From: a virus
Direction: 5' to 3' (one strand)
Virus record (IMG/VR): IMGVR_UViG_3300029260_000512
Coordinates: 1-42,997 of that record
Length of the DNA: 42,997 nt
Part shown: positions 5,051 to 42,997 of the stretch, in pieces
Position numbering within the stretch: the stretch's first letter is position 1
Layout of the letters: each line of letters opens with the position of its first letter
Notes under the pieces: generated by a model
Seen by the model: the letters and a program-made list of their open reading frames with translations, nothing else
What the model was told of the DNA's origin: nothing
Databases searched by the model: none
Made by a program: the position numbers and the translations under genes

Positions 5051-6235
5051 TTACGCCTTGGCTGGCTTGCGGTTAAAACGGGCGTAGGCGTTGGCATAGT
5101 TAACGTTCGCCTGTCTCGCTTGCCCGCCTTCGGGGGAGTGGCTGTTGTGAATGTGCTGGCCTTCGCCGTGGGCGGCGGCAACGTCGAACACGTAGCCGGT
5201 GGCCTGATCGGTATCCATGCCGTTGCTAATCAGCTTTTCCATGAGCTGGTTTTGCCCGGTGGTCTGGCAGGCTTTAATGATGCTGGTCACGCGGGTACGC
5301 TCGGTGGCCAGCACCTGCTCCGGCTGTGCCGCCTGCAGCCGCTGGATAGCCTGAACGGCGCTTTCTGGCGTTTGCTGAATATCAGCAGGGTCTAAGCTGA
5401 GCGCCTTGGCAATCACTGCTAGCGGCTGCCCTTCGGCGTTAGCCGTGGGGGCTTGCTGCCGTAGCGCGATAATCTGATCACCCAGATCAGCGGCTTGGGC
5501 TTCGGCTTCTTCGGGGGTCAGATCGAACGCCAGGGCGAGGGCATCGGCGGCGCTCATGGTGGTTTGCTGCCCGGCTAGCTGGGCGCGCAGGTTGATCAGC
5601 TCGCCATGCTCTTCTAGCTGCTTTTTGAACTTGGACATATCAGCACAGGCCACCGCCTCCAGCTGGGCATCTTTAGCGGTGGCAATGCCCCACGCCAGCG
5701 CTTCATCCGCGCCCATTACCGTGTCGCCCTGATCCAGCAAGCCGTTAATCTCTTCGGCGGTCTTGCCGGTCACCCCTACGAACACATCAACGATGGCATC
5801 ATCGAATTTCGTGAGGTTGGCGGCGGTTTCCTGCATTTCCTTGGCGTTGTAGAAACCCACCATCAGCGAGCTGGCCCGGTGGGTCATTACCGTGGTGCCC
5901 ACGCCCATGGTGCGGGTATCACCCGCCATCATGATCGTTACCGCGATACTGGCCGCCATGCCGGTTACTTTGGTGTGCACCTTGGCACGGTGATTTTTGA
6001 GGTAGTTGTAAATGCGAACGCCGCTGGCCACATCGCCACCAGGGCAATTCAGCTCTATATGGATCTCGTCTAGTTCGCCAAGCGCATCAATCGCGGCGAT
6101 CAACTCACGGGCGGGCTTTTCGCCGGTAAAATCGCTAATCCAATCCGGTGCCCAATCCGAGCCAATCGGGTTATCAATAGCGATATGTGCAATACGCGGG
6201 TTTTCCGCCATTGCTTGAGCTGTAAACCAAGGCAT
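5051..6235 (-). CDS. Prohead protease (ClpP/S49-like) with C-terminal scaffold region
   Basis: The N-terminal half has a ClpP-like fold signature (INCPGGDVASG, MAASIA). The C-terminal half is coiled-coil and Ala/Gln-rich. Follows the portal gene as lambda C/Nu3 does. Confidence 0.75.
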   Translation of the reverse strand: MPWFTAQAMAENPRIAHIAIDNPIGSDWAPDWISDFTGEKPARELIAAIDALGELDEIHIELNCPGGDVASGVRIYNYLKNHRAKVHTKVTGMAASIAVTIMMAGDTRTMGVGTTVMTHRASSLMVGFYNAKEMQETAANLTKFDDAIVDVFVGVTGKTAEEINGLLDQGDTVMGADEALAWGIATAKDAQLEAVACADMSKFKKQLEEHGELINLRAQLAGQQTTMSAADALALAFDLTPEEAEAQAADLGDQIIALRQQAPTANAEGQPLAVIAKALSLDPADIQQTPESAVQAIQRLQAAQPEQVLATERTRVTSIIKACQTTGQNQLMEKLISNGMDTDQATGYVFDVAAAHGEGQHIHNSHSPEGGQARQANVNYANAYARFNRKPAKA

Positions 6236-13669: not shown

Positions 13670-13710
13670 TTGCGTTATTGCGTTATATCACGCTAGCGTT
13701 ATAGCGTTCT
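13670..13710 (-). promoter_or_regulatory. Degenerate copy of the dispersed ATAACGC module upstream of int
   Basis: The minus strand reads AGAACGCTATAACGCTAGCGTGATATAACGCAATAACGCAA. A TATAAC -10-like hexamer lies at 13687..13682, about 75 nt before the int ATG. Confidence 0.45.
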
Positions 13711-13921
13711 AATTAGTGACAGGGGTTACTCGATGCGCCGGAACGTAGCGAATGCGTGACTTATGCTCCATATCCCTCCAATTCCGGCTACCAAACACCT
13801 TTAGCTTTAAGCGACCATCCGGCATTTCCTTCAAGACGTGACAACGCATGTGATAACGCTTCACCCATCGGCAGCAGTGATAACACTCCAATAAGTGAGT
13901 GGCGTTTTCAGATGTCAGCAT
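13709..13921 (-). CDS. Small Cys/His-rich protein, paralog of 14546..14707
   Basis: The start MLTSENA is preceded by CAGGAG. 70 aa. The C-terminal motif AHRV is shared with the 53-aa ORF. Confidence 0.5.
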   Translation of the reverse strand: MLTSENATHLLECYHCCRWVKRYHMRCHVLKEMPDGRLKLKVFGSRNWRDMEHKSRIRYVPAHRVTPVTN

Positions 13922-13957
13922 TCTAGGCTCCTGACAGTAAAACCAAGGGATAAGGAT

Positions 13958-13973
13958 TGCGTTATTTAACGCC
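13958..13973 (-). promoter_or_regulatory. Palindromic ATAACGC-type site (GGCGTTA-AA-TAACGCA)
   Basis: Lies about 40 nt upstream of the MLTSE start, inside the over-extended track ORF 13709..14011. Confidence 0.4.
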
Positions 13974-14083
13974 AGTGTTACACCCTCAAGGCGGGCCGAT
14001 AGCCTGCCCAATCAACCAGACAAGCAACGCGATACACGCCGCTACAACCCCGGAAAGAAAACCAGCAGCTAAAAAGTGCTTTT

Positions 14084-14470
14084 TCATAAGCCGTCACGTT
14101 CCCGCGTGCGATCCTTTAGCGCTTCAAGCGCCCGCTCAATCCCTAGCAGCGCCTCAGCGTTGTAGCGGTTCGCATGCGGCCCATCTTGAAACCGCTCAAC
14201 GCGATCAGCACATACCGCCAGCACAGCCTCTAAAGTCACTCCATTAACGCCAACCTCTTGCGGATTACCATCTTGAAAACTGACACACCCCAGCACCTGA
14301 GCGCCACCACTTATCAGCTCACAGTCAGCGCCCACACCAATGATGTAATGGTTCTGGGCACCCCCTGGGGAATACGGGCCGTGAGCGATCACTGCTTGGC
14401 CCATGTCACCGCGACCGTTACGGCTCACGGCATGCCCGGTCACTAACCGGGGTTGATTGAGATTAGGCAT
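14084..14470 (-). CDS. Conserved phage protein, unknown function
   Basis: The start MPNLNQ is preceded by AGGAGG. 128 aa. Confidence 0.55.
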   Translation of the reverse strand: MPNLNQPRLVTGHAVSRNGRGDMGQAVIAHGPYSPGGAQNHYIIGVGADCELISGGAQVLGCVSFQDGNPQEVGVNGVTLEAVLAVCADRVERFQDGPHANRYNAEALLGIERALEALKDRTRERDGL

Positions 14471-14524
14471 CTTGTGCCCTCCTACTGTCGGTTTTGAATA
14501 GCGCGCCAACGCTGTTTGCCTTTA

Positions 14525-14557
14525 TTGCGTTATAGCGTGCTAGCGTTATTTAACGCT
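14525..14557 (-). promoter_or_regulatory. Dispersed 33-bp module, reverse orientation
   Basis: The minus strand reads AGCGTTAAATAACGCTAGCACGCTATAACGCAA. This is identical to the copy at 20162..20194 and lies 55 nt upstream of the 14470 start. Confidence 0.55.
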
Positions 14558-14707
14558 TACCACTCGATGCGCCCCAAAGCGGGCGATAACGCTTAGCTTT
14601 GCTGCCTTCTTGGTCGTGCTGGCAGGCACCACCATAGAAAACGTTTTAGGCTCATTGCCTTCCAAAACGGTCACGCGGAACACGCGGTTAACCGCTATGG
14701 AAGTCAT
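14546..14707 (-). CDS. Small protein (53 aa), not in the ORF track
   Basis: The ATG at 14707 overlaps the stop of the Q-like gene (ATGA). I translated it by hand as MTSIAVNRVFRVTVLEGNEPKTFSMVVPASTTKKAAKLSVIARFGAHRVVSVK. Confidence 0.45.
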   Translation of the reverse strand: MTSIAVNRVFRVTVLEGNEPKTFSMVVPASTTKKAAKLSVIARFGAHRVVSVK

Positions 14708-15129
14708 AGCCCCAGTACCTGCTCAACGTGCCCACGCGCCCGCGCCAACCGGCGGCGGTAGGTGGCCACACCCACGCCCAACGCGTGCGCCTTTTGCAGC
14801 TGGCCTATATTGCGATGGTCATAGCCCCGCAGCTGGCGGCGGCTCACCACCCGCGCCACGCCCGCGTTGTACTCCAAGCGCAGCACATCGGCGGTCAACA
14901 GATCCTCACGCGCCAGCGATACCACCGCATACTCGATGCGCTCTTCGAGCGGGTACGACTCTGCACCCATAGGGGCCGACCCGCCTACGGTCGAACGGCT
15001 CACCACCCCGCCGTTATCGATCAACACGCCCAACAGCGACGTGCCCAGCGCAGCGCCGCCACCCTGCAGGCACCAGCGAGCCCAGCGCTCCAGCATCACG
15101 TCCAGATCATTAGCCGCCCGACGCCCCAC
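14704..15129 (-). CDS. Putative antitermination protein Q-like
   Basis: The N-terminal LERWARWC resembles the LERWGAWA of QuuD-type Q proteins. It is the last regulatory-looking gene of the leftward early operon. Confidence 0.45.
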   Translation of the reverse strand: MGRRAANDLDVMLERWARWCLQGGGAALGTSLLGVLIDNGGVVSRSTVGGSAPMGAESYPLEERIEYAVVSLAREDLLTADVLRLEYNAGVARVVSRRQLRGYDHRNIGQLQKAHALGVGVATYRRRLARARGHVEQVLGL

Positions 15130-15131
15130 CG

Positions 15132-15464
15132 CTACGCCTCCACAATCGTCAGCGGGTACATTTCCTCAACCTGCCGCTTTTTGAGCTTATACATATCGGT
15201 ACGCACACCCTTAACGTCGATCCATTCCACCGTGCCGTCAGCGCGGAACACGACAAAATCAACGATGTACTTCACCCCGCCCGGCAGAGCGATAGGGGTT
15301 TGCATTAGGAACATGGTCACGCGGTCGGCTTGCTGCTCACTCAGCAGGTAGAGGTAATAATTCGCCTCTTTTTTCGAGTCGAACGTATGGCCGTGAATGG
15401 TCACCTTTTTGTTGTTGTACTTAGCCGCATTGGGCGGGCGGCGGCGCATCTTATGCCGTTGCAT
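15132..15464 (-). CDS. DUF1064-type protein (putative nuclease/resolvase-like)
   Basis: KYNNKKVTIHGHTFDSKKEANYY...DFVVFRADGTVEWIDVKG matches the DUF1064 pattern. The start was chosen at MQRHK. Confidence 0.55.
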   Translation of the reverse strand: MQRHKMRRRPPNAAKYNNKKVTIHGHTFDSKKEANYYLYLLSEQQADRVTMFLMQTPIALPGGVKYIVDFVVFRADGTVEWIDVKGVRTDMYKLKKRQVEEMYPLTIVEA

Positions 15465-15690
15465 GACGCGCCCCCAGCCAATCGTTAAACCGCTCCACCA
15501 GCGCCAGGTATTCGCGCCCGGCCTGCTCGTTCCCATCTAACTCACGGCGGCTAAGCACCCCACACGCCAGCCGCACCTCTGCCGCTGCCGCATTCGCATC
15601 CGGCACCATGCGCCCAGTGGTAGCCGTGAGATAGTCACGAAATAACGGGTTATTGCACAGCATTGCCGCGCCGCGTGCGCATCTGCTCAC
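15451..15690 (-). CDS. Hypothetical protein
   Basis: 79 aa. Overlapping start/stop junctions with both neighbours in the operon. Confidence 0.4.
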   Translation of the reverse strand: MSRCARGAAMLCNNPLFRDYLTATTGRMVPDANAAAAEVRLACGVLSRRELDGNEQAGREYLALVERFNDWLGARHATA

Positions 15691-16097
15691 GACACCACCT
15701 GCTTAGCCCACAGCTCAGACAGCGCAGCCTCACCATCAATAAAATGCCGGTGGCCACCCTTGGCGGCGGTCGCCAGCAGATCCCCGCGCACAATCGCCAC
15801 CTCCTCGCTGGGCACGCCCTCCACATGCACCACATGGCCACCCAGCTTGCGGATGCGGTCGGCCTCTACCCGATGCACCACGTGGGCCACCACCAAGCAC
15901 TCCGCCCCCTTGGCCGGGGTCGCGCTAATCATCCCCTCCAGGCGCTGCATGCGGCGGGCCACTTCGGTATGAGCGCCAAAGCGCTGCGCAGGCGCATCAA
16001 CGTAAATTGACACGCTGCAAATCTGCGCATCCCGCATCGCCCGCGCCACGCGCTCACGTGCCAGCGGGTTAGCACCAGCGATTCCTATTAGTAGCAT
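15687..16097 (-). CDS. Hypothetical protein
   Basis: 136 aa. Overlapping junctions with neighbours. The N-terminal LLIGIAG is loosely P-loop-like, but no clear Walker A is present. Confidence 0.4.
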   Translation of the reverse strand: MLLIGIAGANPLARERVARAMRDAQICSVSIYVDAPAQRFGAHTEVARRMQRLEGMISATPAKGAECLVVAHVVHRVEADRIRKLGGHVVHVEGVPSEEVAIVRGDLLATAAKGGHRHFIDGEAALSELWAKQVVS

Positions 16098-16654
16098 TCG
16101 ACTGCCTCTTTTAGCTTCTTAGCGCGGTGCGCCTGCAAATGGTCGTGTAAGTCGATAACGGTGGGCGCGCTGCCCTGGGAAAGCGCCGCATCCACCGCCG
16201 CGCTCATTTCCCCCACGGTCACGCGGGAAACGCACCAGCGGGCGAAATAGCGCAGGTTATCGGGGTGGTTCGCCACGTGGGGCGGGTAAGCCAAATCATT
16301 GATAAACCACCCCGCCCACTGCTCAGCGCAGTGGTAAAGGGTGTCGTCGGTGGGTGCCTGGGCAGGGTCTACGCGTTCTAGCGTCGGGCAATGCACCGTG
16401 AGCGCTTCGCCATCGTCTTCAACGATCACCAGCCCCTGCTCTTGGTAAAAGGCCATAAACTCACGGGCGCTATCGTCGTCGGCTTCCATCAGGTCGCCCC
16501 ACTCCACATAAGTTTTTCGTACCGGCCCGGTGGCGGCGGCCAGGGTTTCCAGTACCAGCAAATAGCGGGCATAGCCAATCAACCCATATTCAGCAGCAAT
16601 AGCGCTCACGCCCTCGCTGTGCGCCAGCCCGGCAGGGTGAACAAACGCGCTCAT
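16088..16654 (-). CDS. Hypothetical early protein
   Basis: 188 aa, in the early leftward operon. Confidence 0.45.
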   Translation of the reverse strand: MSAFVHPAGLAHSEGVSAIAAEYGLIGYARYLLVLETLAAATGPVRKTYVEWGDLMEADDDSAREFMAFYQEQGLVIVEDDGEALTVHCPTLERVDPAQAPTDDTLYHCAEQWAGWFINDLAYPPHVANHPDNLRYFARWCVSRVTVGEMSAAVDAALSQGSAPTVIDLHDHLQAHRAKKLKEAVECY

Positions 16655-17517
16655 GCAGCACCCCGCGCAATTTCGTTATCAAAATGGCGCTCCCACTCAG
16701 GCACAGACAAACGCTTGCCGCTGATCGTCTTAGCAAACAAGCGCCCACCTTCGGCCCAGCTATCCCGCCGCCACATGCCTCTAGGGGCTTTACCGCCCTT
16801 GTTAAGAGGCTGGCCAGCGTCAAGCCAAGACTTATGTTTGATGGACGACATTTCCTCAAAGCGCGCTTCTATATCTGCTGCAACCCGCCAATCATCAGGG
16901 TGATTCAGATACATATCGCGTAGCTCTTCCTCGCTCATATACGGGCAAAAAACGCAGCTACTCTTATGCACATCAGGCCAGCCCAAGTGCGCCAGCAACC
17001 CCTCCAGGCGGTCTCGGGTCAGCCCCAAATCAATAAGCGGGTAACGGTATTCGGCTAGGTCGTCTTTAGGAGGAGTGAACCGCTTAGCGCGCTTACCCTC
17101 ATTCGCTTCAATGCCAATAAGCCAAACTGGGTGCGTAATACCTTCATCTTTCGCCCATGCGGCCAACACATCGCCTTTAAATTTCTTACTACAAACATGG
17201 GCACCACCGGGCATGATCGGCACGATACCAAGACGATGACACCACTCAGCGATGCTTTCGCCCGCCTTGCGCGTGATCACCAGGCGATCACCCAGCGCCT
17301 GCTTAACTCGCTCAATGGTGCGATAGGTAACTGCAAACTCAGCACCAGGGTCACTAAACACTGCTTTATCAAACCTTGGCAGGGCTGCATCGAGGTTGGC
17401 GCGGCTTATGCCTAAGTACGCAGCTGCTGCAGCCCGGTGCTGATCCATAGCTATCAGTGCGGTGCTATCCATACCGCCGCCGTAAGAAAGCAGCACTTGT
17501 TTAGCAACCCCACTCAC
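16651..17517 (-). CDS. PP-loop ATPase (PAPS reductase / adenine-nucleotide alpha-hydrolase superfamily)
   Basis: N-terminal SYGGGMDS PP-loop motif and a C-terminal CVFCPY motif. 288 aa. Second gene of the leftward early operon. Confidence 0.6.
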   Translation of the reverse strand: MSGVAKQVLLSYGGGMDSTALIAMDQHRAAAAAYLGISRANLDAALPRFDKAVFSDPGAEFAVTYRTIERVKQALGDRLVITRKAGESIAEWCHRLGIVPIMPGGAHVCSKKFKGDVLAAWAKDEGITHPVWLIGIEANEGKRAKRFTPPKDDLAEYRYPLIDLGLTRDRLEGLLAHLGWPDVHKSSCVFCPYMSEEELRDMYLNHPDDWRVAADIEARFEEMSSIKHKSWLDAGQPLNKGGKAPRGMWRRDSWAEGGRLFAKTISGKRLSVPEWERHFDNEIARGAA

Positions 17518-17735
17518 GCCGCCCCCTCACGCGCACTAATAGCGGCCACGTACGGGGCATAGATCCCGTTGTAATCCAGCTTGCCCGCCGCTGCTTTCAC
17601 GATGCGGCCAGCAGCTTTCGCGGTGGGGGCGCGGTCTAGGTAATACCAGCTACGCACCGTGCGGTATTTCTCGCCCAGCAGCGTAGCGGCAACATCCATC
17701 CCGCCTACATCATCAATCCAGCGGCTTAAATCCAC
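17514..17735 (-). CDS. Cro-like small HTH regulator
   Basis: Divergent from the CI-like gene. TLLGEKYRTVRSWYYL resembles Cro/YdaS-type HTH proteins. The start is uncertain (GTG at 17735 or ATG at 17699). Confidence 0.5.
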   Translation of the reverse strand: MDLSRWIDDVGGMDVAATLLGEKYRTVRSWYYLDRAPTAKAAGRIVKAAAGKLDYNGIYAPYVAAISAREGAA

Positions 17736-17913
17736 GGCTTATACACTCATTGACACATATTGTGGACAAAACTAGCGCAATTTAACCGACCTAACAACGG
17801 TTTTTCATCGTCGCGGCCACAAAAAGTGTATTATTATTCCAATAACCGCTATCAAACTGTGGCGCAACCGCACACCCACAGACGGCCACCGCCGGGCAAA
17901 AAAGGGTTAAACC

Positions 17914-18546
17914 ATGCAAGAGAACATCACAGGCCAACGCCTACGCGAACTCAGAGCGCGGCGCGGTATGAAAGCCGTCGATTTAGCCAAAGCGCTAGGC
18001 ATTCAGCGCACCCGCGTAAGCAACTGGGAAACCGGCATACGCAACCCCCAGCGTGAAGAGCTGGTAAAGCTGGCCAGCGTGCTAGATGTAAGCCCCGCCT
18101 ACCTGATCGGCTGGATTAACGAAGAGATTTACTCCACCCACCAGCCCATAGAACGCAACAGCCTAACGCTCAACAACGGCGAAACCGTCACGCTAGAAAG
18201 CGCCACCAGCGCCCACGCCTATAGCGAGCAATTTCTAAACGCCCGCGACCTAAAGGCTCAGCAGCTCATGGCCCTAACGGTAGACGACGACGCCATGAAC
18301 GACGTGATATGCAAAGGCGACACCGTGCTAGTGGATATGCAGCGCAAACGCAGCGGCGGGCGCGACCTCTTCGCCATGCTAGTGAACGGCAGTATATGGG
18401 TGCGGTGGGTACGGCCTGAGCTAAACGGCACGTTTACCGTCAGCGCCGAAAACAGCACCCAATACCCCGACCAAACGCTAACCGAAAAGCAGCTAGAAGC
18501 ACTTGATATTATTGGACGAATCACACGAATAGAGCGCGACCGCTAA
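17914..18546 (+). CDS. CI-like repressor (XRE HTH plus S24 LexA-like peptidase domain)
   Basis: N-terminal HTH (LRELRARRGMKAVDLAKALGIQRTRVSNWETG). The C-terminal S24-like half contains MNDVICKGDTVLVD and a Lys downstream. Confidence 0.85.
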   Translation: MQENITGQRLRELRARRGMKAVDLAKALGIQRTRVSNWETGIRNPQREELVKLASVLDVSPAYLIGWINEEIYSTHQPIERNSLTLNNGETVTLESATSAHAYSEQFLNARDLKAQQLMALTVDDDAMNDVICKGDTVLVDMQRKRSGGRDLFAMLVNGSIWVRWVRPELNGTFTVSAENSTQYPDQTLTEKQLEALDIIGRITRIERDR

Positions 18547-18610
18547 CCCGCTAGCGGTAGCCAGCAACGCACCAGGGGGAAAATAAACCATCATTTTGTG
18601 ACTTTTTACA

Positions 18611-18666
18611 TTGCTAGATGCCACTTTAAGTGTACACTTTAACCATCAAGTGACCACTTCAAGGTG
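18611..18666 (+). promoter_or_regulatory. Candidate rightward promoter with three CACTT/AAGTG operator-like palindromes
   Basis: TTGCTA (18611)-16-TACACT (18633). Palindromes are CACTTTAAGTG at 18622..18632, CACTT-N8-AAGTG at 18635..18652 and an imperfect CACTTCAAGGTG at 18655..18666. Confidence 0.4.
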
Positions 18667-18936
18667 CCCATCATGGCAAGCCAGACCCCCATCGCCGCCA
18701 CCAGCGGCCTACCCTCGGTTACCGGCAAAGACCAAATCATCCTGCTGCTACGCCTGCCCCGCGCCCAAGCGGCAGGCATAGACGCGCTAGTACAACGCGG
18801 CCTAGACGAAGGCGAGCTACCCCCCGACCAACTCGAACACCTGGGCGTACTCACCGCCAACCTAGCCAACGACCTAGAACAGCTGGCCGCTTTTTTAGAT
18901 GAAATCGGCGTCACCCACGGTGGCCGCCGTGGCTAA
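18664..18936 (+). CDS. Hypothetical protein
   Basis: 90 aa. The start may be the ATG at 18673. Confidence 0.4.
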   Translation: MPIMASQTPIAATSGLPSVTGKDQIILLLRLPRAQAAGIDALVQRGLDEGELPPDQLEHLGVLTANLANDLEQLAAFLDEIGVTHGGRRG

Positions 18937-19375
18937 CGTACAGCGCCAGCCATGGCGCGACGACGACGCCCTAGCCCAACCCGGCCAAGCGCTCAGCGCC
19001 CAAGAGCTAGCCCATCTAACGGCGCTGGCCAACGGCAACGCCCCCAGCGCGATCACCGCGATCAACGGCACCAGCCGCATCGAACAGCAGCAGCTAGAAA
19101 GCACCCTACGGGCCAAGCTGGGCGCGTTCAGCAAAGCGCACCTCATCACCCGCGCATTCGTGCTAGGCGTGCTAGTACCCCGTGCGCTCTGCCTGCTTCT
19201 GGCCGCGCTCAGCATCAACGCCAGCCCCGGCGATCTCATGGCCACCCGCGCCCCGCGCCCCTCGCGCAGCCCGGTTAGCTCGCAACGCAACGTGCGCAGC
19301 CACCGCGCCATAGCCGACGCCTACGCGCTGCCCAGCATCACCCTGCACGCGCAAAAAGCGAAAGAGGCCGCGTAA
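18899..19375 (+). CDS. Putative LuxR-type HTH protein
   Basis: LSAQELAHLTALANGNAPSAITAINGTSRIEQQQLESTLRAKLG resembles the LuxR C-terminal HTH pattern. The start is uncertain. Confidence 0.4.
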   Translation: MKSASPTVAAVANVQRQPWRDDDALAQPGQALSAQELAHLTALANGNAPSAITAINGTSRIEQQQLESTLRAKLGAFSKAHLITRAFVLGVLVPRALCLLLAALSINASPGDLMATRAPRPSRSPVSSQRNVRSHRAIADAYALPSITLHAQKAKEAA

Positions 19376-19677
19376 TGAAACCGCACATCCTCACAGGCCC
19401 GCGCCGTAGGCACTGCCGCTGTCGCGTCTGTCGTGGGCGGCAAGTGAAAGCAAAGCACCCGGACGACTACGCCCGGCGCATCCGCTGCAAACACTGCGGC
19501 CAATTCAACACGCTGGTAGTCGACAAATGGGCAGATAACCGGGGCTGGCGAAAGTACACCTGCTATTGCGATGGCTACCACTTCCCGCACCGCATCCGCT
19601 CAGAATTTTGTTTTGAAAACCCAAACTACGGCGAACAAGAAGAACGCCGGTTAATGGCCTACGGGGTGATGGCATGA
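19375..19677 (+). CDS. Cys-rich zinc-finger-like protein
   Basis: CRCRVC...CKHCG...CYCDGYH. The ATG overlaps the upstream stop. Confidence 0.45.
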   Translation: MKPHILTGPRRRHCRCRVCRGRQVKAKHPDDYARRIRCKHCGQFNTLVVDKWADNRGWRKYTCYCDGYHFPHRIRSEFCFENPNYGEQEERRLMAYGVMA

Positions 19678-20189
19678 AGATTATGGCGACCGACCTACCG
19701 CTAAAACACTGGCAGCGCATCGCAGAGCAAAACGGCATTCAGCGCAGAACGTTTCTCTATCGCCTGAAAACCATGGACGCGAAAAAAGCCGCCACCAAGC
19801 CACTCAAAAAAGGCGGCATAAAGCCCAGCGCCACAAGCCTACGCCAAAAGAGCCTAGCCGCCGGGCTAGATGAATGCGCCCTAAGCCGCTACCGCCGCGA
19901 ACACCCCGAAAGCCAGCTAAGCGACGAAGCCGCTTTAGCCTTTCTGCAAGCGCGCAAAGCCAAACTGCAAAACACCGTACGCGAACGCGCCCTTGCAGCA
20001 GGGCTAAGCCCCCAGCTGGTGTACAGCCGCATTAGCCGCAACTGGCCGCTAGATAAAGCGCTCAACACCCCAGCAATGCCCACTAGCCACGCGGCCCGCA
20101 TCGGTGGCAAAGCCCGCGCCCAGCAAAAGCGCGAACGCCGCCAGCAGCGGCTCCAGCAGGTAGCGTTAAATAACGCTAGCACGCTATAA
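19674..20189 (+). CDS. Hypothetical basic protein with repeated HTH-like segments
   Basis: 171 aa. Its 3' end runs into the 33-bp module. Confidence 0.45.
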   Translation: MKIMATDLPLKHWQRIAEQNGIQRRTFLYRLKTMDAKKAATKPLKKGGIKPSATSLRQKSLAAGLDECALSRYRREHPESQLSDEAALAFLQARKAKLQNTVRERALAAGLSPQLVYSRISRNWPLDKALNTPAMPTSHAARIGGKARAQQKRERRQQRLQQVALNNASTL

Positions 20190-20194
20190 CGCAA
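20162..20194 (+). promoter_or_regulatory. Dispersed 33-bp module AGCGTTAAATAACGCTAGCACGCTATAACGCAA
   Basis: A 7-bp-arm palindrome AGCGTTA-AA-TAACGCT plus a TATAAC -10-like hexamer (20185..20190), 27 nt before the rdgC-like ATG. Confidence 0.55.
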
Positions 20195-20220
20195 ACAAAA
20201 CCGACACAGGAAGCCCCGCC

Positions 20221-21396
20221 ATGTTTTTCAAAAGCGCCAACGTCTACCGTTTACACGACGCCCCCGAACACACCGCCGAAACCCTCAACGACATGCTAAA
20301 AGGCGATGCCGCTAAACCGCTGGGCAATGCCGACGCCAAGCGCCACGGCTGGACACCGCCCGCCAGCCGCAACGCAGAGCTATTCATGCACGAAGTGCAG
20401 GGCCACCGCCTGTTTAGCATGCTCAAACAAGAGCGCCTACTACCCGGCAGCGTGATTAAAGACGCGGTAGAGGAACAGGTAGAAGCGCTAGAAGAGGAGG
20501 AAGGCCGCTTTCTCACGCGCAAAGAAAAGACCGCGATCAAAGAGCAAGTAACGGAATCGCTACTCCCCCGCGCCTTTGTTAAAACCACCAAAGTGTTCGC
20601 ATGGTGGGACGTAAAGCGCGGGCGCATCACCGTCAACAGCGCCAGCCGCTCGGTGTGCGAGGATCTATTAGACCTGCTACGCGAAACCCTGGGCAGCCTC
20701 AAAGCCACCCCGCACAGCACCCAAACGCTACCCGTACGCGCCATGACCACATGGCTAAACGACAAACCCAGCCGCCCCGCCAACCTAGCGCTTGGCGACG
20801 TGATCACCCTCAAAGATAAAGGCGATGATGGCGTATGGCGTGGCCGTCAGATCGACCCCGACAGCGACGAGATACAGCAAATGCTCGAAACCGGGCGGCA
20901 AGCGGTAGAACTGGCGATGACCGTCAACGACAACGTTTCATTCACCCTCAACGACGGCCTAACCCTCAAAAGCCTGCGCTTTGGTGACAAGCTGCTGGAA
21001 GAGGCAGACGCCCAAGACGACGGCGACGACGCCACCGCCCGCCTAGAAACCGACTTCTACCTAATGGCCAACGCCCTAGCCGAAGCGATCGACAGCCTAA
21101 CCGCCATGATGGGCGGGCCAGCTCAGCGCAGCGAGAACAGCGAGCGCGCCGTTCCCGTATCGCTCGATGAACCAGACACCGGCACCCACCCCGGCGAACA
21201 TATCGGCGGCTTTGAGAACGGCTTTGAACAAGAAGAGCCGTTATTGAAAGAGGCCATCGAGCTAGCCAAAACGAACAACTGTGACACGTTCACGGTTACG
21301 AAATTGCAGCGGCATTTCAAAATTGCGTACGACCGTGCCCAGCAGCTGCAAGCGCGACTAGAAAACGCCAACCCTCGCGGGCTACCTACCCCATGA
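20221..21396 (+). CDS. rdgC: RdgC-like recombination-associated protein with C-terminal FtsK-gamma-like winged helix
   Basis: The N-terminal 300 aa are colinear with E. coli RdgC (FFKSANVYRL, GWTPP, LLPGSVIK, SLLPRAF, LRETLGSL). The C-terminal TKLQRHFKIAYDRAQQLQARLE resembles the FtsK gamma motif (QRxxxIGYxRAxxxxxxLE). Confidence 0.75.
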   Translation: MFFKSANVYRLHDAPEHTAETLNDMLKGDAAKPLGNADAKRHGWTPPASRNAELFMHEVQGHRLFSMLKQERLLPGSVIKDAVEEQVEALEEEEGRFLTRKEKTAIKEQVTESLLPRAFVKTTKVFAWWDVKRGRITVNSASRSVCEDLLDLLRETLGSLKATPHSTQTLPVRAMTTWLNDKPSRPANLALGDVITLKDKGDDGVWRGRQIDPDSDEIQQMLETGRQAVELAMTVNDNVSFTLNDGLTLKSLRFGDKLLEEADAQDDGDDATARLETDFYLMANALAEAIDSLTAMMGGPAQRSENSERAVPVSLDEPDTGTHPGEHIGGFENGFEQEEPLLKEAIELAKTNNCDTFTVTKLQRHFKIAYDRAQQLQARLENANPRGLPTP

Positions 21397-21545
21397 ACAC
21401 CACCATCAACTACCGCTGCTACAACCCCAAATGCGACCAGGGCAACGCCCCCGGCTGGATGCTAGGCGCTAACGCCATTTGCCCCAAGTGCGGCCACTGG
21501 CTCACGCACCAGCCCAACGATAACGCCAGCGTTAAAAAACGCTAG
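21393..21545 (+). CDS. Zinc-ribbon mini-protein (50 aa), not in the ORF track
   Basis: ATGA overlap with the rdgC stop. Translates as MNTTINYRCYNPKCDQ...CPKCGHW. Confidence 0.45.
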   Translation: MNTTINYRCYNPKCDQGNAPGWMLGANAICPKCGHWLTHQPNDNASVKKR

Positions 21546-21560
21546 CACGCTATAACGCAA
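21528..21560 (+). promoter_or_regulatory. Dispersed 33-bp module (one arm mismatch)
   Basis: AGCGTTAAAAAACGCTAGCACGCTATAACGCAA. TATAAC lies at 21551..21556, 19 nt before the next ATG. Confidence 0.5.
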
Positions 21561-21578: not shown

Positions 21579-21710
21579 ATGCCCACCCCGCTAATGCTAC
21601 TGATCGGGCTAGCCGCTGCCGCCATCGCCTACGCCGGGTGGCGGTGCAAACGCGAAATGGAACAGCTCGACCACAACGGCGACCCCATCGACCAGGACGA
21701 ACAGCCATGA
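21579..21710 (+). CDS. Small single-pass membrane peptide, copy A (43 aa)
   Basis: MPTPLMLLIGLAAAAIAYAGWRCKREMEQLDHNGDPIDQDEQP. About 92 percent nucleotide identity to 22412..22543. Confidence 0.5.
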   Translation: MPTPLMLLIGLAAAAIAYAGWRCKREMEQLDHNGDPIDQDEQP

Positions 21711-21952
21711 TCATCGACCACCGCGCCAAAAACGCCCAGCGCATTCCCTGCAAAGAGTTTCGCGGTGAATGCCGCATGTGCCAAAGCGGGTTTATTGCCC
21801 GCAGCGGGGTATGCTCGGGCGTCAACCCTGACACCGCCAGCCCGCCCGACTGCCTGCGTGACGAAGTGCCAGAACACCTCTGCCAGCCCAACGGCCTACC
21901 GCTGGGATGGGGCAAATTCACGCAGGATAGCGCCAGCGAGGCCGCCCAATGA
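21707..21952 (+). CDS. Cys-rich protein (81 aa)
   Basis: Start MIIDHR by ATGA overlap. Ends SASEAAQ*, like 22540..23016. Confidence 0.45.
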   Translation: MIIDHRAKNAQRIPCKEFRGECRMCQSGFIARSGVCSGVNPDTASPPDCLRDEVPEHLCQPNGLPLGWGKFTQDSASEAAQ

Positions 21953-22007
21953 TATTCATCACCCTTACCCGCGACGACATCGCCAAGGCCCGCCAGGAGA
22001 GCCAGGT

Positions 22008-23249: not shown

Positions 23250-23501
23250 CGCTACTCTCCCCCTGTCGCTGCAAAATCAGCGACCGGGTTTGGAAGCCCG
23301 AACGGATATTGGCGCACTAGCGCCCCCTTTCATCGTGTAGGCGCTATTTTTGTGCCCGCATGATGCACTATGGCGGGCCGTGCGTGGGGCGCTTCGGCGC
23401 GCCGGGTTTCCAATGTCCTCGGTCTTCCAACCCGCGTACGGTTCGCCTCCATTGTTTGGAAGCAATGTGGCGAACTCCAACAGACTTGGAGATCCACTAA
23501 A
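23250..23501 (+). ncRNA. Highly structured leader or candidate regulatory RNA upstream of the ORF6N-like gene
   Basis: At least eight hairpins. They include two with identical loops TTTGGAAG (23285..23300 and 23450..23467), an antiterminator/terminator-like alternative (23311..23324 versus 23318..23351) and an SD-sequestering stem (23476..23490). Confidence 0.4.
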
Positions 23502-24284
23502 ATGAACATCCCCACCATTTCAGTTTCTGGCGTTCAGCTACCCTATATCGAGCACCAGCAACAACCCGTCGTCACTTTCACAATGATAGACACAGCGCAT
23601 GGCCGCCCAAGCGGTACAGCAAGAAAGCGCTTTAACGACAACAAGCGCCATTTTGTTGAAGGCGAAGACTACTATCCTATTGATTCTGATAGATTGTCCG
23701 AAATTCGGACAATCTATCCAGGCCTGTTTCCCGATGCCATGAAGCGCGTCACTTTCTTCACCGAAACCGGCTACCTCATGTTGGTCAAATCGTTTACCGA
23801 CGACCTCGCTTGGCAAGTGCAGCGCCAGCTCGTCAAAAGCTATTTCCGCGTAAAAGGGGCGATGCAGCCCACCGCCGCCGAGCCCATCCCCGCGCCCATC
23901 GACCACCGCCAGCGCGAACAGCTTACCAACGCCGCTAACGCCGTGTTTCGCAATTTCGGCGGCATGCGCCAAAGCGCCACCGGCTGGTTTTACAACGGCG
24001 TACGCACCGACTACTGCCTAAAGCGCATCGAAGATCTAAGCCAAGACGACTTCCCGGCAGTGATGGACCGCCTCCAAGCCCTACGTAACAACGTGCGCCA
24101 ATACGAAGATTTCCGGCACGATATCCAGCAGTCGTTTTTTAAAGAGGTGGTAGGCGAAGGCCACCCGTACACGGCCTGGGTCAGCAAGCTAGCCGGTGGC
24201 CAACACCACATCGGTAAGCGCCCGGACTGGAAAGCGATAGCCAAACAAGTGCTAATCCACAACGGTTTACTCACCAAACAGTAA
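23502..24284 (+). CDS. ORF6N/KilA-N-like DNA-binding protein (possible antirepressor)
   Basis: The N-terminal region FFTETGYLMLVKSFTDDLAWQVQRQLVKSYF resembles ORF6N-type domains. The start is at MNIPT. Confidence 0.5.
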   Translation: MNIPTISVSGVQLPYIEHQQQPVVTFTMIDTAHGRPSGTARKRFNDNKRHFVEGEDYYPIDSDRLSEIRTIYPGLFPDAMKRVTFFTETGYLMLVKSFTDDLAWQVQRQLVKSYFRVKGAMQPTAAEPIPAPIDHRQREQLTNAANAVFRNFGGMRQSATGWFYNGVRTDYCLKRIEDLSQDDFPAVMDRLQALRNNVRQYEDFRHDIQQSFFKEVVGEGHPYTAWVSKLAGGQHHIGKRPDWKAIAKQVLIHNGLLTKQ

Positions 24285-24307: not shown

Positions 24308-24331
24308 AGCCCGCCACCGTGCGGGCTTTTT
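24308..24331 (+). terminator. Intrinsic terminator AGCCCGC-CACCGT-GCGGGCT-T4
   Basis: Directly after the ORF6N-like gene. Confidence 0.7.
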
Positions 24332-24346
24332 GCTGCCTGAACATTC

Positions 24347-24469
24347 AGCGTTAAATAACGCTAGCGTTATAGCGTTTTATCTTGCACCCCTAGCGGCGCT
24401 TTTCTATACTAGCGTTATTGCGTGCTAGCGTTATTTCACGCTTTGACGCCAGCGCGCAATAACGCAACG
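24347..24469 (+). promoter_or_regulatory. par promoter flanked by ATAACGC/GCGTTAT heptads (candidate operator/centromere)
   Basis: TTGCAC (24382)-17-TATACT (24405). A forward module lies at 24347..24381 and a reverse module at 24408..24442. A further ATAACGC lies at 24459..24465. Confidence 0.55.
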
Positions 24470-24488
24470 ATCAACTAAGGGGAAACCA

Positions 24489-25133
24489 ATGGGATACAAG
24501 ATAGGGGTAGTCAGCCAAAAAGGGGGCGTGAGCAAAACCACCATTAGCCGCGCCATCGCTACCACGTTTGCCGCCGATGGCTGGAATGTAAAAATTGCCG
24601 ACCTCGATATTAACCAGGCATCATCGTTTTCATGGCTGCAACGACGCCTTAGCCGCAGCATCACGCCCACCGTGGCCGTTGAGCAATTTGGCAACGTGGC
24701 CAGCGCACTCAAGATGGCCGATAACTACGACCTTATGATTTTCGACGGTGCGCCCCATGCCTCCAAGGCCACCGCCGAAGTGGCCCGCCAGTCGGATTTA
24801 ATCATTCTGCCCACCGCCACCAGCGTTGACGATTTAGAGCCGCAAGTGCGCCTAGCCAACAAGCTCACCAGTGAAGACGGCGTACCCGCTGAACGCATCG
24901 CCTTTGCGCTCAGCAAAGTAGGCAACAGCCCGCTGCAGATCAAAGAAGCCCGCAACTACCTAAGCGCCACACCCTACTTTGTGCTGAGCGGCCAAGTACC
25001 CGAAAAAACCGCGTTTATACGCGCTCAAGATACCGGGCTTTCCATCGTCGAAACCCCCTTTAAAGGCCCGCGTAAACAAGCCGAAGAGCTGATAGAAAGC
25101 ATCATCGAACGCTTTAGCCAGCTGACTCAATAA
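24489..25133 (+). CDS. parA: ParA-family partition ATPase (small, type Ib-like)
   Basis: Deviant Walker A KGGVSKTT. 214 aa. Confidence 0.85.
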   Translation: MGYKIGVVSQKGGVSKTTISRAIATTFAADGWNVKIADLDINQASSFSWLQRRLSRSITPTVAVEQFGNVASALKMADNYDLMIFDGAPHASKATAEVARQSDLIILPTATSVDDLEPQVRLANKLTSEDGVPAERIAFALSKVGNSPLQIKEARNYLSATPYFVLSGQVPEKTAFIRAQDTGLSIVETPFKGPRKQAEELIESIIERFSQLTQ

Positions 25134-25150
25134 CGAAAGGAACCGCCCAC

Positions 25151-25399
25151 ATGGTGAAGAAGATCAACATACCCAAACCCAGCAGCAAAGGTGCACCGCC
25201 CACGGTAGACGCACCCGGCCCGGTAGTAGGCAACAACACCAGTAAGCCGGAAAGCGGCGAAAAGGTGCCGCTTAATTTCCGCGTTGATCCTGAAATGCGC
25301 CGTGAATTTAAAGCCTTCGCCGTAGAGCATGACATGCAAATGGTGGACGTACTCAAGGAAGCCTGGGCGGCGTACAAGCGGGAAAAAGGGAAGGGCTAG
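25151..25399 (+). CDS. Ribbon-helix-helix partner protein (ParG/omega-like)
   Basis: 82 aa. It has a disordered basic N-terminus followed by VPLNFRVDPEMRREFKAFAVEHDMQMVDVLKEAW, a typical RHH pattern. Lies immediately downstream of parA. Confidence 0.6.
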   Translation: MVKKINIPKPSSKGAPPTVDAPGPVVGNNTSKPESGEKVPLNFRVDPEMRREFKAFAVEHDMQMVDVLKEAWAAYKREKGKG

Positions 25400-26597: not shown

Positions 26598-27110
26598 CTA
26601 TCGCAACGATTTAACCAGTGTCAGCTCATCGCTGGGCAAAGGCTTAAAACCGTATCGCTTATAAAAATCCACCGCATCAGGCAACGCGTTTATCATCAGG
26701 GCCACAGACCCCACTAAACGCGACTGATCGGCTGCAGTTTGCCAAGCAGCCAGTAGCAAACGGCAACCGACCCCCTTGCCTTTTAGTCGGCTATCGACGG
26801 CTAAACGCCCTAACGTGGTCACTGGAACGCTTCGGGGCATGTTCTTTTTTAACTTGCCCATCATTTTTTCGCGGTCCACTGCACCAGATGCAAGCGCAAA
26901 ATATCCTAGCACTAGCTTTGTGCCTGGGGCGCACACTACATAGACCGTAGTAGCACCACTTTGATGGTTGCCTAACGCTTCACTGGCTAAAAACTTATTT
27001 AGCGTGAACACGCCACAATCGAAGTGGCTTAGGTCGTGCTGAGGCGTTAAGAGCTCTGGGGCTGCGACGACGCCCAAATCGGTGTTTTGTTGAGAAGTTT
27101 CTGAAAGCAT
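26598..27110 (-). CDS. GNAT acetyltransferase toxin (TacT/KacT-like)
   Basis: 170 aa. HDLSHFDCG motif and acetyl-CoA site LKGKGVG. RBS GGAGGA. Paired with a DUF1778-type antitoxin. Confidence 0.8.
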   Translation of the reverse strand: MLSETSQQNTDLGVVAAPELLTPQHDLSHFDCGVFTLNKFLASEALGNHQSGATTVYVVCAPGTKLVLGYFALASGAVDREKMMGKLKKNMPRSVPVTTLGRLAVDSRLKGKGVGCRLLLAAWQTAADQSRLVGSVALMINALPDAVDFYKRYGFKPLPSDELTLVKSLR

Positions 27111-27355
27111 GGGTCCTCCGATGCTGGCTGTTTAATAGCCTCTTCGAAGAACGCGTAGTCGGTTTCATTCAGCATGTAGAATCGTCGGTTCAGCAGTACC
27201 TCTTCGGCTTTTCGACATGCGGCTTCCACCACGAAACTGGTTCGATCCCCCCCCAGCTCCGCTACGGCTCTATCGATCAAGGCGCGTTTTTTAGGGTCAA
27301 CACGCATATTGAGGGCCAGTGGCTTAGCCACTGCCTCAGCAGCTGTGCTTTTCAT
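27047..27355 (-). CDS. DUF1778 RHH antitoxin (TacA/KacA-like)
   Basis: LNMRVDPKKRALIDRAVAELGGDRTSFVVEAACRKAEEVLL is the classic DUF1778 pattern. The ORF overlaps the toxin start by 64 nt. Confidence 0.8.
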   Translation of the reverse strand: MKSTAAEAVAKPLALNMRVDPKKRALIDRAVAELGGDRTSFVVEAACRKAEEVLLNRRFYMLNETDYAFFEEAIKQPASEDPCFQKLLNKTPIWASSQPQSS

Positions 27356-27763: not shown

Positions 27764-28411
27764 ATGTACGTCAGGGGATACCTACGCGCCAGCACGGCAG
27801 AACAGAACGCCCAGCGGGCACGCAGTACGCTAGAACACTTCGCCGCTGAACATCGCCGTGAGGTAGTGAGCTGGTATATCGAGAATGTGAGCGGCGCTAG
27901 CAGCCAGCGCCCAGAACTCAGGAGGCTTCTGGAAGATGCCAAGCAAGGTGATGTGCTGCTGATAGAATCGGTAGACCGCCTTTCCCGCCTGGGGGCGGCA
28001 GAGTGGCGGCACCTGCGGGGGCAGATTGAGGCGCTAGGGTTACGGGTGGTGTCGCTGGACCTTCCCACTAGCTACGCAGCCATGGCCATGCCCACCCAAG
28101 GCGAGGATTTTACCGCCCGCATGCTCGATGCGCTGAATACCATGATGCTAGACGTACTCGCAGCGGTAGCCCGCAAAGACTACGACGACCGGCGAACGCG
28201 CCAGCGCCAGGGGATAGAGCAAGCAAAGAAGGAAGGCAAATACCAGGGCAAGCGGCCCAACAAGGCACTACACCAGCGAATTGAAGCGCTATTGAACGCC
28301 CGCGACGGTGAAGGCAAACCGTTCACCACGGCGCGCATTTGCGAACTAGCCGGGTGCGGTGAAACCACTGTGAAAAAGGTAAAGCGGGCTATGCGCGAAA
28401 AGGCACACTAA
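27764..28411 (+). CDS. Serine recombinase (resolvase/invertase family)
   Basis: N-terminal YLRASTAEQ catalytic Ser motif, SVDRLSR, and a C-terminal HTH. Confidence 0.85.
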   Translation: MYVRGYLRASTAEQNAQRARSTLEHFAAEHRREVVSWYIENVSGASSQRPELRRLLEDAKQGDVLLIESVDRLSRLGAAEWRHLRGQIEALGLRVVSLDLPTSYAAMAMPTQGEDFTARMLDALNTMMLDVLAAVARKDYDDRRTRQRQGIEQAKKEGKYQGKRPNKALHQRIEALLNARDGEGKPFTTARICELAGCGETTVKKVKRAMREKAH

Positions 28412-31179: not shown

Positions 31180-31534
31180 CATCATACTACACCGCATGAC
31201 GCTATTGGAAAATTGCTAAGCGGGTTTATGCGCTTGGCCGTGATCCTACTGGGCACCGCCGCTTACCCGAAATAACGCTCAACCCAGCACACCTCTATAA
31301 AAACACGGCGCACGCGCAGGGCAAGAATCCGAGCGACTTCTATGCAGAATGGGCCGCTATCGTTTCGCCTACCCCTTTATTAAAACACGCATTCTCAAAG
31401 CGCAACCTAAAACCAAACTGATGAATTTATTCATAATCTTAGGCGCAAACAGCAGACGCTTAGGCAACATATAAGCGACACTTACCAGCAACGGCAATCA
31501 CCGCCCCGGCACCCACCTGGGCATTTTTCACGCA

Positions 31535-42300: not shown

Positions 42301-42960
42301 TTACACCAACTGCAAAAGCGCCCCTCTAAGGGCTTCTATCCGGGTGTAGTCTGCGGGGTTAACCTGTTGCCCATTACCTGAACTGGCAATATGGCCCTTG
42401 ATACGATCCACCATAAACATCTTCATAGAGCCGCTTTTCAGGCACTGCGCTTTTAAAAACACACGGCCACCCTTAGTGCTTATACGTTGGATGCTCACAT
42501 GCTGCTTTCGCGGGGCCGGGTCGCTTTGGCCTTGATAACTGAAAAACACCTCTACCGGCTGCTCTAAGTCGTCAGCCATCGGCTTAGCAATAGGCTTTGA
42601 CGGCCTAGCCGCTGGCATCGGCTGGGCGGGCAGATCAGGCGGTGCAGGGTCTGATTTTTCAGCCTCTCTTTTCAGCTTTTCCTCTGCATTCACTTTCTCT
42701 AATTGCCGATGAATATCGTCTTGATCAAAGCGCTTCTTCTTGCTCTGATTAGAGCTAAATACAGATAACCAAACGCCAAGCCCAACAATAGCCAGTGCGC
42801 CGAAAAAGACACCTAAGACCTCAAGCCATCCATATAAGCTCACACCCAAAAGCAATAGAAAAAGCGCAAGAAAACCTGAAATAACCTTCATCACTCCAGG
42901 TAAAAGTTTGGTGGCATACAGCAGCACCACCAAGATTAGAAACAGCAGAAACACCACCAT
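42301..42960 (-). CDS. Moron: polytopic membrane protein with a C-terminal WYL-like domain
   Basis: 219 aa. It has three predicted TM helices at the N-terminus, a charged linker and a C-terminal VEVFFSYQG...RKQHVSIQRI...RVFLKAQCLKSGSMKMFMVDRIKG resembling the WYL-domain pattern. It has its own promoter-like and terminator elements. Confidence 0.6.
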   Translation of the reverse strand: MVVFLLFLILVVLLYATKLLPGVMKVISGFLALFLLLLGVSLYGWLEVLGVFFGALAIVGLGVWLSVFSSNQSKKKRFDQDDIHRQLEKVNAEEKLKREAEKSDPAPPDLPAQPMPAARPSKPIAKPMADDLEQPVEVFFSYQGQSDPAPRKQHVSIQRISTKGGRVFLKAQCLKSGSMKMFMVDRIKGHIASSGNGQQVNPADYTRIEALRGALLQLV

Positions 42961-42997
42961 GACAGCCCCCTAGCGTTATTTGTTGGCAGGTATCCAA
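42857..42997. repeat. Terminal overlap copy B, identical to 1..141
   Basis: Same 141-bp string as the window start. Confidence 0.9.

Follow-up and report, generated by a model that had tools for sequence, protein, structure and literature searches.

The window analysed in this work is the whole 42,997-nt stretch of the IMG/VR virus record IMGVR_UViG_3300029260_000512, and the element that it represents is best read as a temperate Halomonas phage-plasmid. A previous reading made from the letters alone (hereafter the sequence-only reading) had noticed a dispersed 33-bp module, a palindrome followed by TATAAC, and had interpreted it as a phage-specific promoter/operator class served by one DNA-binding protein. 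We found that the module is probably a four-box array for the ribbon-helix-helix (RHH) protein that accompanies the element's own ParA in a type Ib partition (par) system. The arrays are most likely a ParG/omega-like operator/centromere of type Ib partition, now residing in a phage-plasmid, and not a new class of promoter. Thus the observation itself stood and the promoter/operator interpretation was supported in part: the sites form one cis-acting class, very probably with one DNA-binding protein.

The 33-mer AGCGTTAAATAACGCTAGCACGCTATAACGCAA occurs exactly at 20162-20194 (+) and 14525-14557 (-), with one mismatch at 21528-21560 (+) and with three mismatches at 24410-24442 (-), which bears out the repetition described by the sequence-only reading; no copy is expected by chance (100 shuffles). 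The motif-frequency check proposed in that reading was also run. The core hexamer TAACGC/GCGTTA is present 65 times in the window against about 32 expected, the clustered hexamers number 18 against 0.9 expected, and 7 phased clusters were counted (expectation 0.12), a number that none of 200 simulations attained. When GCGTTAAATAACGCTNNNACGC was scanned in the GTDB genomes, only two matches were obtained, both on low-GC contigs of metagenome-assembled genomes unrelated to the window.

Each module consists of phased 4-bp boxes, GCGT-6-ACGC-4-ACGC-4-ACGC (the numerals are spacer lengths), separated by AT-rich spacers with a period of 8 bp; it is a box array, not a palindrome plus a -10 element. 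The 7-bp palindrome arms attributed to all full copies are 6 bp long in the 21528 copy. Among the copies that had been listed as degenerate, those at 13670-13710, 13958-13973, 24347-24381 and 24408-24442 are true arrays of the same boxes, but those at 116-125 and 31270-31279 are single hexamers indistinguishable from background. The modules had been said always to point toward the downstream gene. This holds for every dispersed copy, the ACGC run of which faces the adjacent gene start, but at the par promoter the module is present both ways within one symmetric array. The gene starts faced are those of rdgC (20221, +), the open reading frame (ORF) at 21579 (+), parA (24489, +), the genes at 14470 (-) and 13921 (-), and int (13609, -). 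Modules do extend into the final codons of the ORF before them, with stop codons at 20187-20189, 21543-21545 and 14546-14548. The positions of the arrays are given in Table 1.

The largest and densest arrays bracket the par promoter in front of parA and the RHH gene. The ParA protein matches the Pfam families CbiA, AAA_31, ParA and MipZ from residue 4-5 onward, as well as the ParA-like phrog_164. Features of a type Ib locus found here include a small ParA lacking an N-terminal DNA-binding domain and direct plus inverted repeats over the par promoter, and the par arrays are arranged in the same way in every relative and in remote members of the family. The protein encoded by the second gene of the pair matches Pfam RHH_10 weakly, under the curated cut-off (E = 7.7e-4). 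In its AlphaFold model, residues 1-38 are disordered, residues 39-46 are extended and residues 47-59 and 64-79 form helices. Nearly all Foldseek matches of this model are RHH proteins, including the whole of the top 21, with ParG (1p94) at rank 5; the E-values are not significant because the RHH domain is very small. A profile search of PDB sequences with an alignment of the RHH protein gave sub-threshold matches only, some of them RHH proteins. From the model, an RHH fold preceded by a flexible N-terminal tail is predicted for the product of 25151-25399. The beta-strand of this protein, VPLNFRV, shows no or almost no variation across 15 homologues, and the contigs of these homologues keep the boxes unchanged. 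Two types of N-terminal tail were seen, MxxK(V/I)NIxKP and MAKPxxKP (window 25151-25180; relatives P0001-P0012), which track two types of ParA with at least 84% and at most 74% identity, respectively, to the ParA of the window. This pattern suggests that tail and ParA may be co-adapted, as expected for a ParA-stimulating tail.

Contigs from IMG/VR and from metagenomes share the early region of the window and have its boxes at the corresponding sites: in front of int, the 141-aa gene and rdgC, behind the 50-aa gene, and at the par promoter; most of them have an extra four-box array in the gap between parA and the RHH gene. The CI proteins of these relatives are only 41-58% identical while the boxes are unchanged, and the RHH proteins are 68-96% identical. 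One relative, with 75% DNA identity to the window, is the plasmid NZ_CP080628.1 of H. qaidamensis XH36, in which the int-proximal position also holds an array. Since this plasmid is a complete circle of 45.9 kb, we regard the family as one of phage-plasmids.

The plasmids pZM3H1 and pTHAF12_c provided the decisive comparison. These mobilisable Halomonas plasmids share with the window only ParA (66-68% identity) and the RHH protein (54%), whose beta-strand reads VPCNFRV, and they have no homologue of the LuxR-like, ORF6N or CI proteins. Nevertheless, in both plasmids TAACGC arrays with the 8-bp period flank the par promoter on either side, and further arrays occupy the space between parA and the RHH gene and stop at the Shine-Dalgarno sequence; in pTHAF12_c, 8 of the 10 TAACGC hexamers are at par. 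The boxes have therefore been co-inherited with the ParA-RHH gene pair into otherwise unrelated plasmids. It follows that the sites are not phage-specific, as had been supposed, and that the CI-like, LuxR-like and ORF6N-like proteins, all named as candidate binders in the sequence-only reading, are each disfavoured.

The RHH family occurs in 169 plasmid records, many of them of 36-50 kb and non-mobilisable, and the two plasmids annotated in full, from Aeromonas and P. aeruginosa, are phage-plasmids. Across this family the sequence of the box varies with the beta-strand of the RHH protein while the architecture of the array is constant. The strand NFRV goes with ACGC in the Halomonas elements and with GCACGC in pXAG81 of X. 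citri (RHH protein 38% identical); NFKV goes with TAACGAA in Aeromonas and AGCGAA in P. aeruginosa, NFKR with ACGAA in Vibrio, and AFNV with TATAGA/TATATA in E. coli pECO-b75. The core of the box is thus CGC with NFRV and CGAA with NFKV or NFKR. Thus the repeats are both co-inherited with a candidate binder and covary with it, as a repeat and its cognate protein should be, and the plasmid comparison and the covariation together favour the RHH protein, which was also on the earlier list of candidates.

Arrays outside par are not peculiar to the window. In pZM3H1 (L029), two TAACGC arrays (21701-21722 and 21968-21989) lie 5' of a RelE/ParE-HTH (helix-turn-helix) toxin-antitoxin operon; this position recalls the control of epsilon-zeta by omega in pSM19035. 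The Aeromonas phage-plasmid has one extra array before a recombinase gene, built of the cognate variant box, and one after the tape-measure gene, and the P. aeruginosa phage-plasmid has two extra arrays outside par. All of these are far above chance.

Table 1. Box arrays of the window and features associated with them
Feature	Position	Strand	Remarks
Five-box array before int	13672..13707	-	Plus strand reads GCGT-4-GCGT-6-ACGC-2-GCGT-4-GCGT; about 60 nt 5' of int start 13609
Two-box palindrome GCGTTATTTAACGC only	13959..13972	-	About 35 nt 5' of ATG 13921; weak or partial site
Exact four-box module	14525..14557	-	Overlaps stop of ORF 14546-14707; 54 nt 5' of ATG 14470 (141-aa gene)
Exact four-box module	20162..20194	+	Overlaps end of ORF 19674-20189; 26 nt 5' of rdgC ATG 20221
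Five-box array (extra ACGC box plus 1-mismatch module)	21523..21560	+	Overlaps end of ORF 21393-21545; Shine-Dalgarno 6 nt beyond, then small membrane-peptide ORF 21579
Intrinsic terminator-like hairpin and T-run	24310..24331	+	Closes ORF6N operon before par control region; kept in relatives
Upstream par operator array	24348..24375	.	GCGT-6-ACGC-2-GCGT-4-GCGT; stops 6 nt before -35
Putative par promoter	24382..24410	+	TTGCAC-17 nt-TATACT (-10 at 24405-24410); 8/12 consensus positions, below scan threshold; conserved in relatives
Downstream par operator array	24412..24465	.	Symmetric: three GCGT, 6-bp centre, four ACGC-type boxes (one degenerate, GCGC); runs from -10 into leader, stopping about 12 nt before parA Shine-Dalgarno
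parA	24489..25133	+	214-aa Walker-type ParA without N-terminal DNA-binding domain (type Ib)
RHH protein gene	25151..25399	+	82 aa; inferred ParB/centromere-binding protein, proposed binder of all boxes

Two further observations concern the sites themselves. A three-box cluster, GCGT-4-GCGT-6-ACGC (GATGCGTTCAGGCGTTTTATAACGCTCG), is present at 404-425 inside a DUF1799 tail gene (182-604, -) and could be a weak extra site or a product of chance; arrays are also found in the tail regions of the Aeromonas and P. aeruginosa phage-plasmids. Downstream of two modules, at 20197-20212 (+) and about 14480-14495 (-), the leader motif CAAAACCGACA is followed by a Shine-Dalgarno sequence, and the same motif stands before rdgC in the relative L022.

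Because the design of the arrays matches those of ParG and omega, we infer a similar mode of action. RHH dimers would coat the arrays cooperatively, each box taking up one dimer, as is the case for ParG and omega. At 24348-24465 their binding would autoregulate parA and the RHH gene and build the partition complex, and the dimers would also occupy the dispersed arrays of four to five boxes, which may have been copied from the par promoter, together with leader and Shine-Dalgarno sequence, to rdgC, the membrane-peptide cassette, the 141-aa gene and int. The dispersed arrays are intra-operon, lie over the last codons of the preceding ORF and are followed by a leader and a Shine-Dalgarno sequence, with no recognisable promoter nearby. 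Given this location, their occupation would most likely repress read-through transcription or act as a roadblock to it for as long as the element persists as a plasmid, and the dispersed arrays may double as additional centromere sites.

The way in which the arrays spread left traces in the relatives. Identity to three relatives (L014, L015 and L018) is 93-97% up to the module at 20162-20194 but only 59-73% just 3' of it, from about the start of rdgC. The arrays at par are 93-98% identical; beyond them, in the stretch 24470-25220, the value drops to 65-80% in parA and returns to 93% in the RHH gene, so that parA behaves as an exchangeable cassette. In the relative L019, the unit of module, Shine-Dalgarno sequence and ATG occurs twice, at 5864 and 9957, and the two copies show 98% identity across 47 nt. 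From these drops in identity and the duplicate unit of L019, the arrays coincide with crossover points of cassettes, which suggests that recombination at shared array sequences may have spread them.

Several points weigh against the assignment of the arrays to the RHH protein. The window itself is devoid of the parA-RHH gap array that most relatives have. The RHH call is a prediction built on a sub-threshold Pfam match, a monomer model of medium confidence (pLDDT 66) and Foldseek E-values that are not significant, and box binding is a prediction for every member of this RHH family. The LuxR-like and ORF6N proteins and several unknown proteins are likewise always present in the phage relatives; therefore, the discrimination between the RHH protein and these others depends on the plasmid comparison. 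A centromere needs neither the strict alignment of the sites with gene direction nor their constant short distance from the Shine-Dalgarno sequence, and a promoter-associated role would fit both features too. Finally, we know of no direct citable precedent for a roadblock by an RHH array.

The alternative closest to the sequence-only reading, that each module is a regulator-controlled promoter with TATAAC as -10 and the palindrome at the -35 position, for which the RHH protein could be the repressor, is unlikely in our judgement. The modules are indeed co-oriented with gene starts and near them, module, leader, Shine-Dalgarno sequence and ATG have been copied as a unit, and the second position of the hexamer is A in 31 of 33 distinct modules. 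The omega protein moreover acts as a repressor at Pdelta, Pomega and PcopS, and its arrays overlap real promoters, including its own (PMC9499535). However, the last spacer is variable (AATA in 13, TATA in 12 and other sequences in 8 of the 33 distinct modules from relatives), and the sixth base of the hexamer is in every case the C that closes the last ACGC box, so that T never stands at -7; in pTHAF12_c the corresponding sequence is TTTAAC. No -35 element was found, as AGCGTT and GCGTTA at a distance of 16-18 nt match TTGACA at no more than one of six positions, and there is no TG extension because CGC precedes the hexamer. Hence the modules do not combine a -10 having A at -11 and T at -7 with a -35 or TG element, as sigma-70 promoters do. 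A sigma-70 consensus scan reported no module; it also missed the par promoter (8/12). The upstream flanks are GC-rich coding sequence. In the copies that lie 5' of the RHH gene in relatives the last box abuts the Shine-Dalgarno sequence, 13-14 nt from the ATG, so that a transcript starting about 7 nt past the hexamer would lose the Shine-Dalgarno sequence; for all copies 13-15 nt from an ATG the geometry speaks against a start site downstream of the module. The sequence-only reading had placed the starts 15-50 nt before the Shine-Dalgarno sequence, but that of the 21528 copy, about 7 nt past TATAAC, would be only about 3 nt before it. As to the palindrome, its location at about -35 to -20 is the position of a repressor, not of an activator. 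A phage sigma factor that reads the module was considered and rejected, since the product of 18899-19375 has no Pfam sigma domain and its homologues are named LuxR/CsgD-type HTH proteins, and in view of the plasmid comparison.

We think it very unlikely that another phage regulator binds the 7-2-7 palindrome, be it chiefly this LuxR/CsgD-type HTH protein (18899-19375) or ORF6N or an unknown early protein. Inverted repeats of the 7-2-7 type are the classic binding sites of HTH dimers of the NarL/GerE type. The LuxR-like protein occurs in all phage relatives (59-96% identity), and its weak PHROG match to 'sigma factor' reflects a sigma-4-like HTH, but it has no Pfam match. If it were the binder, the sites should co-occur with a LuxR-type protein, and they do not: pZM3H1 and pTHAF12_c have the boxes in the absence of any LuxR-like, ORF6N or CI homologue. 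Direct ACGC repeats with a period of 8 bp and the covariation of box and beta-strand also fit an RHH protein, not an HTH dimer. The ORF6N gene is probably an antirepressor gene, because it sits behind a C4 antisense RNA and a1/b1 targets, and this argues against ORF6N as the binder. Stoperators offer another comparison: in cluster A mycobacteriophages (L5 gp71), these asymmetric sites are scattered between genes and point the same way as transcription. The sites of the window resemble them in all of these respects, and a CI-like S24 repressor (17914-18546) is present which might block elongation from such sites. We nevertheless consider this barely conceivable. Stoperators are bound by the immunity repressor and should co-evolve with it, whereas the boxes here are independent of CI, being identical in relatives in which CI is only 41-58% identical and present in plasmids without CI; and no array was found in the divergent region of cI and 17514-17735, where the primary operators should be.

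It is also highly improbable that the modules have no protein partner at all and act as mRNA hairpins in processing or translation control, or as conserved linkers promoting cassette recombination. The 16-nt palindrome can form a hairpin of 6-7 bp, and the arrays do coincide with mosaic junctions. On the other hand, the folding energies are ordinary and not significant (z from -0.7 to -1.4), the changes in the arms are uncompensated (AGCGTG...AACGCT, AGCGTTATTTCACGCT), the boxes covary with a protein beta-strand, and a hairpin would explain neither the direct repetition of ACGC nor the inverted copies at the par promoter. An Rfam scan found no family over the modules. A role in recombination is compatible with the arrays being RHH sites, and probably secondary to it. 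An iteron or origin function was rejected, since RepA and oriV repeats exist separately in pZM3H1.

The rest of the window bears on the nature of the element, for which protein names and PLSDB pointed to a Halomonas host. Its ends, 1-141 and 42857-42997, are 100% identical, and the window is therefore a closed circle of 42,856 bp. It encodes lambda-like siphovirus functions (gpA terminase, portal, tail tube and lysozyme) together with a CI-like S24 repressor, an integrase, RdgC, a TacA/GNAT toxin-antitoxin pair and a resolvase. By megablast, the part from 13 to 26 kb had no match among GenBank phages. The integrase is a tyrosine integrase of 422 aa, carried despite the phage-plasmid nature of the element. 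Beside par lies an accessory region with the TacA-like antitoxin and GNAT toxin pair and a serine resolvase (26598-27355 (-); 27764-28411 (+)), typical plasmid-maintenance cargo; in the H. qaidamensis relative the equivalent region has a reverse transcriptase/maturase gene. Rfam matches at gathering level were obtained for a1/b1 targets (23252-23304), C4 antisense RNA (23366-23453) and isrK (23265-23351, +). They lie directly 5' of the ORF6N gene (23370-24284) and overlap its start, an arrangement at 23252-23453 that appears to be a P1/P7 immI-like antisense control of an antirepressor. The small membrane-peptide cassette 3' of the 21528 module is duplicated (21565-21710/22398-22543, 90%; 21929-21990/22993-23054, 85%).

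These results assign a conspicuous non-random repeat to a specific protein and system, and turn a 'hypothetical protein' family of 169 plasmid records into predicted RHH ParB proteins. They also provide a readable recognition rule, in which Arg or Lys in the beta-strand goes with C or A in the box, and a warning that the AT-rich spacers of operator arrays can be misread as -10 elements. The data further suggest that in these phage-plasmids the partition protein takes part in the control of the integrase and of early phage genes; if this is true, plasmid maintenance is linked to the phage life cycle. As a more far-reaching and rather doubtful proposal, the RHH partition protein might serve as a second, plasmid-state repressor in a widespread group of phage-plasmids, those of Halomonas, Aeromonas and Pseudomonas and possibly the 46-50-kb E. 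coli plasmids. Four-box arrays within early operons would then be orientation-specific roadblocks before the ribosome-binding sites of rdgC, integrase/recombinase and accessory cassettes, whose expression would thereby be coupled to partition. They would also be portable crossover points, at which relatives could exchange cassettes along with the control site of each. Literature searches for RHH ParB regulons of phage-plasmids found nothing.

Among known systems, the locus is similar to ParF-ParG/parH/OF of TP228, in which a small ParA is likewise followed by an RHH protein of about 80 aa with a flexible N-terminal tail. In TP228, the boxes of ParG are ACTC with 4-bp AT-rich spacers, direct and inverted, over the parFG promoter (PMC3130281). 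The window has the same design of 4-bp boxes and 4-bp AT-rich spacers in both orientations, 5' of the operon and over its promoter, but its box is ACGC, its RHH protein has no detectable sequence similarity to ParG, which is only a structural match, and its arrays of four to five boxes are also dispersed before other genes, unlike the single contiguous 20-box region of TP228.

The dispersed arrays are more reminiscent of omega of pSM19035, an RHH ParB with short repeats of mixed orientation at several loci. Omega regulates its own gene as well as those for partition and for other maintenance functions, and the minimum functional unit of its parS is four contiguous repeats, the very number of boxes in each module here (PMC9499535). 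The arrays before the toxin-antitoxin operon of pZM3H1 add to this likeness. The period is 8 bp in the window and 7 bp in omega, and the dispersed arrays here are intra-operon, abut Shine-Dalgarno sequences and have no recognisable promoter, whereas those of omega are at mapped promoters. The host element is also different from pSM19035, being a phage-plasmid of a gammaproteobacterium.

The phage-plasmid N15 is another plasmid-prophage with ParB sites apart from each other; these are reportedly scattered over the genome, and Sop is said to influence phage gene expression. However, N15 is of type Ia and has a large spreading HTH ParB with single palindromes of 14-16 bp, whereas the type Ib system of the window has an RHH protein and arrays of several boxes. 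The separate centromere sites of N15 SopAB, IR1-IR4, do not form one array (PMC7205306).

The nearest counterpart is the PAR module of pZM3H1 from Halomonas sp. ZM3, a mobilisable plasmid and not a phage, for which Dziewit et al. (2013) proposed in silico that repeats near the par promoter are parS (PMC3606827). That study described the repeats as imperfect inverted repeats of 7 bp and recognised neither the RHH fold nor the 8-bp box array (PMC3606827). Its ParA is 68% identical to that of the window, its 80-aa ParB candidate is 54% identical to the RHH protein, and both elements carry the same TAACGC boxes.

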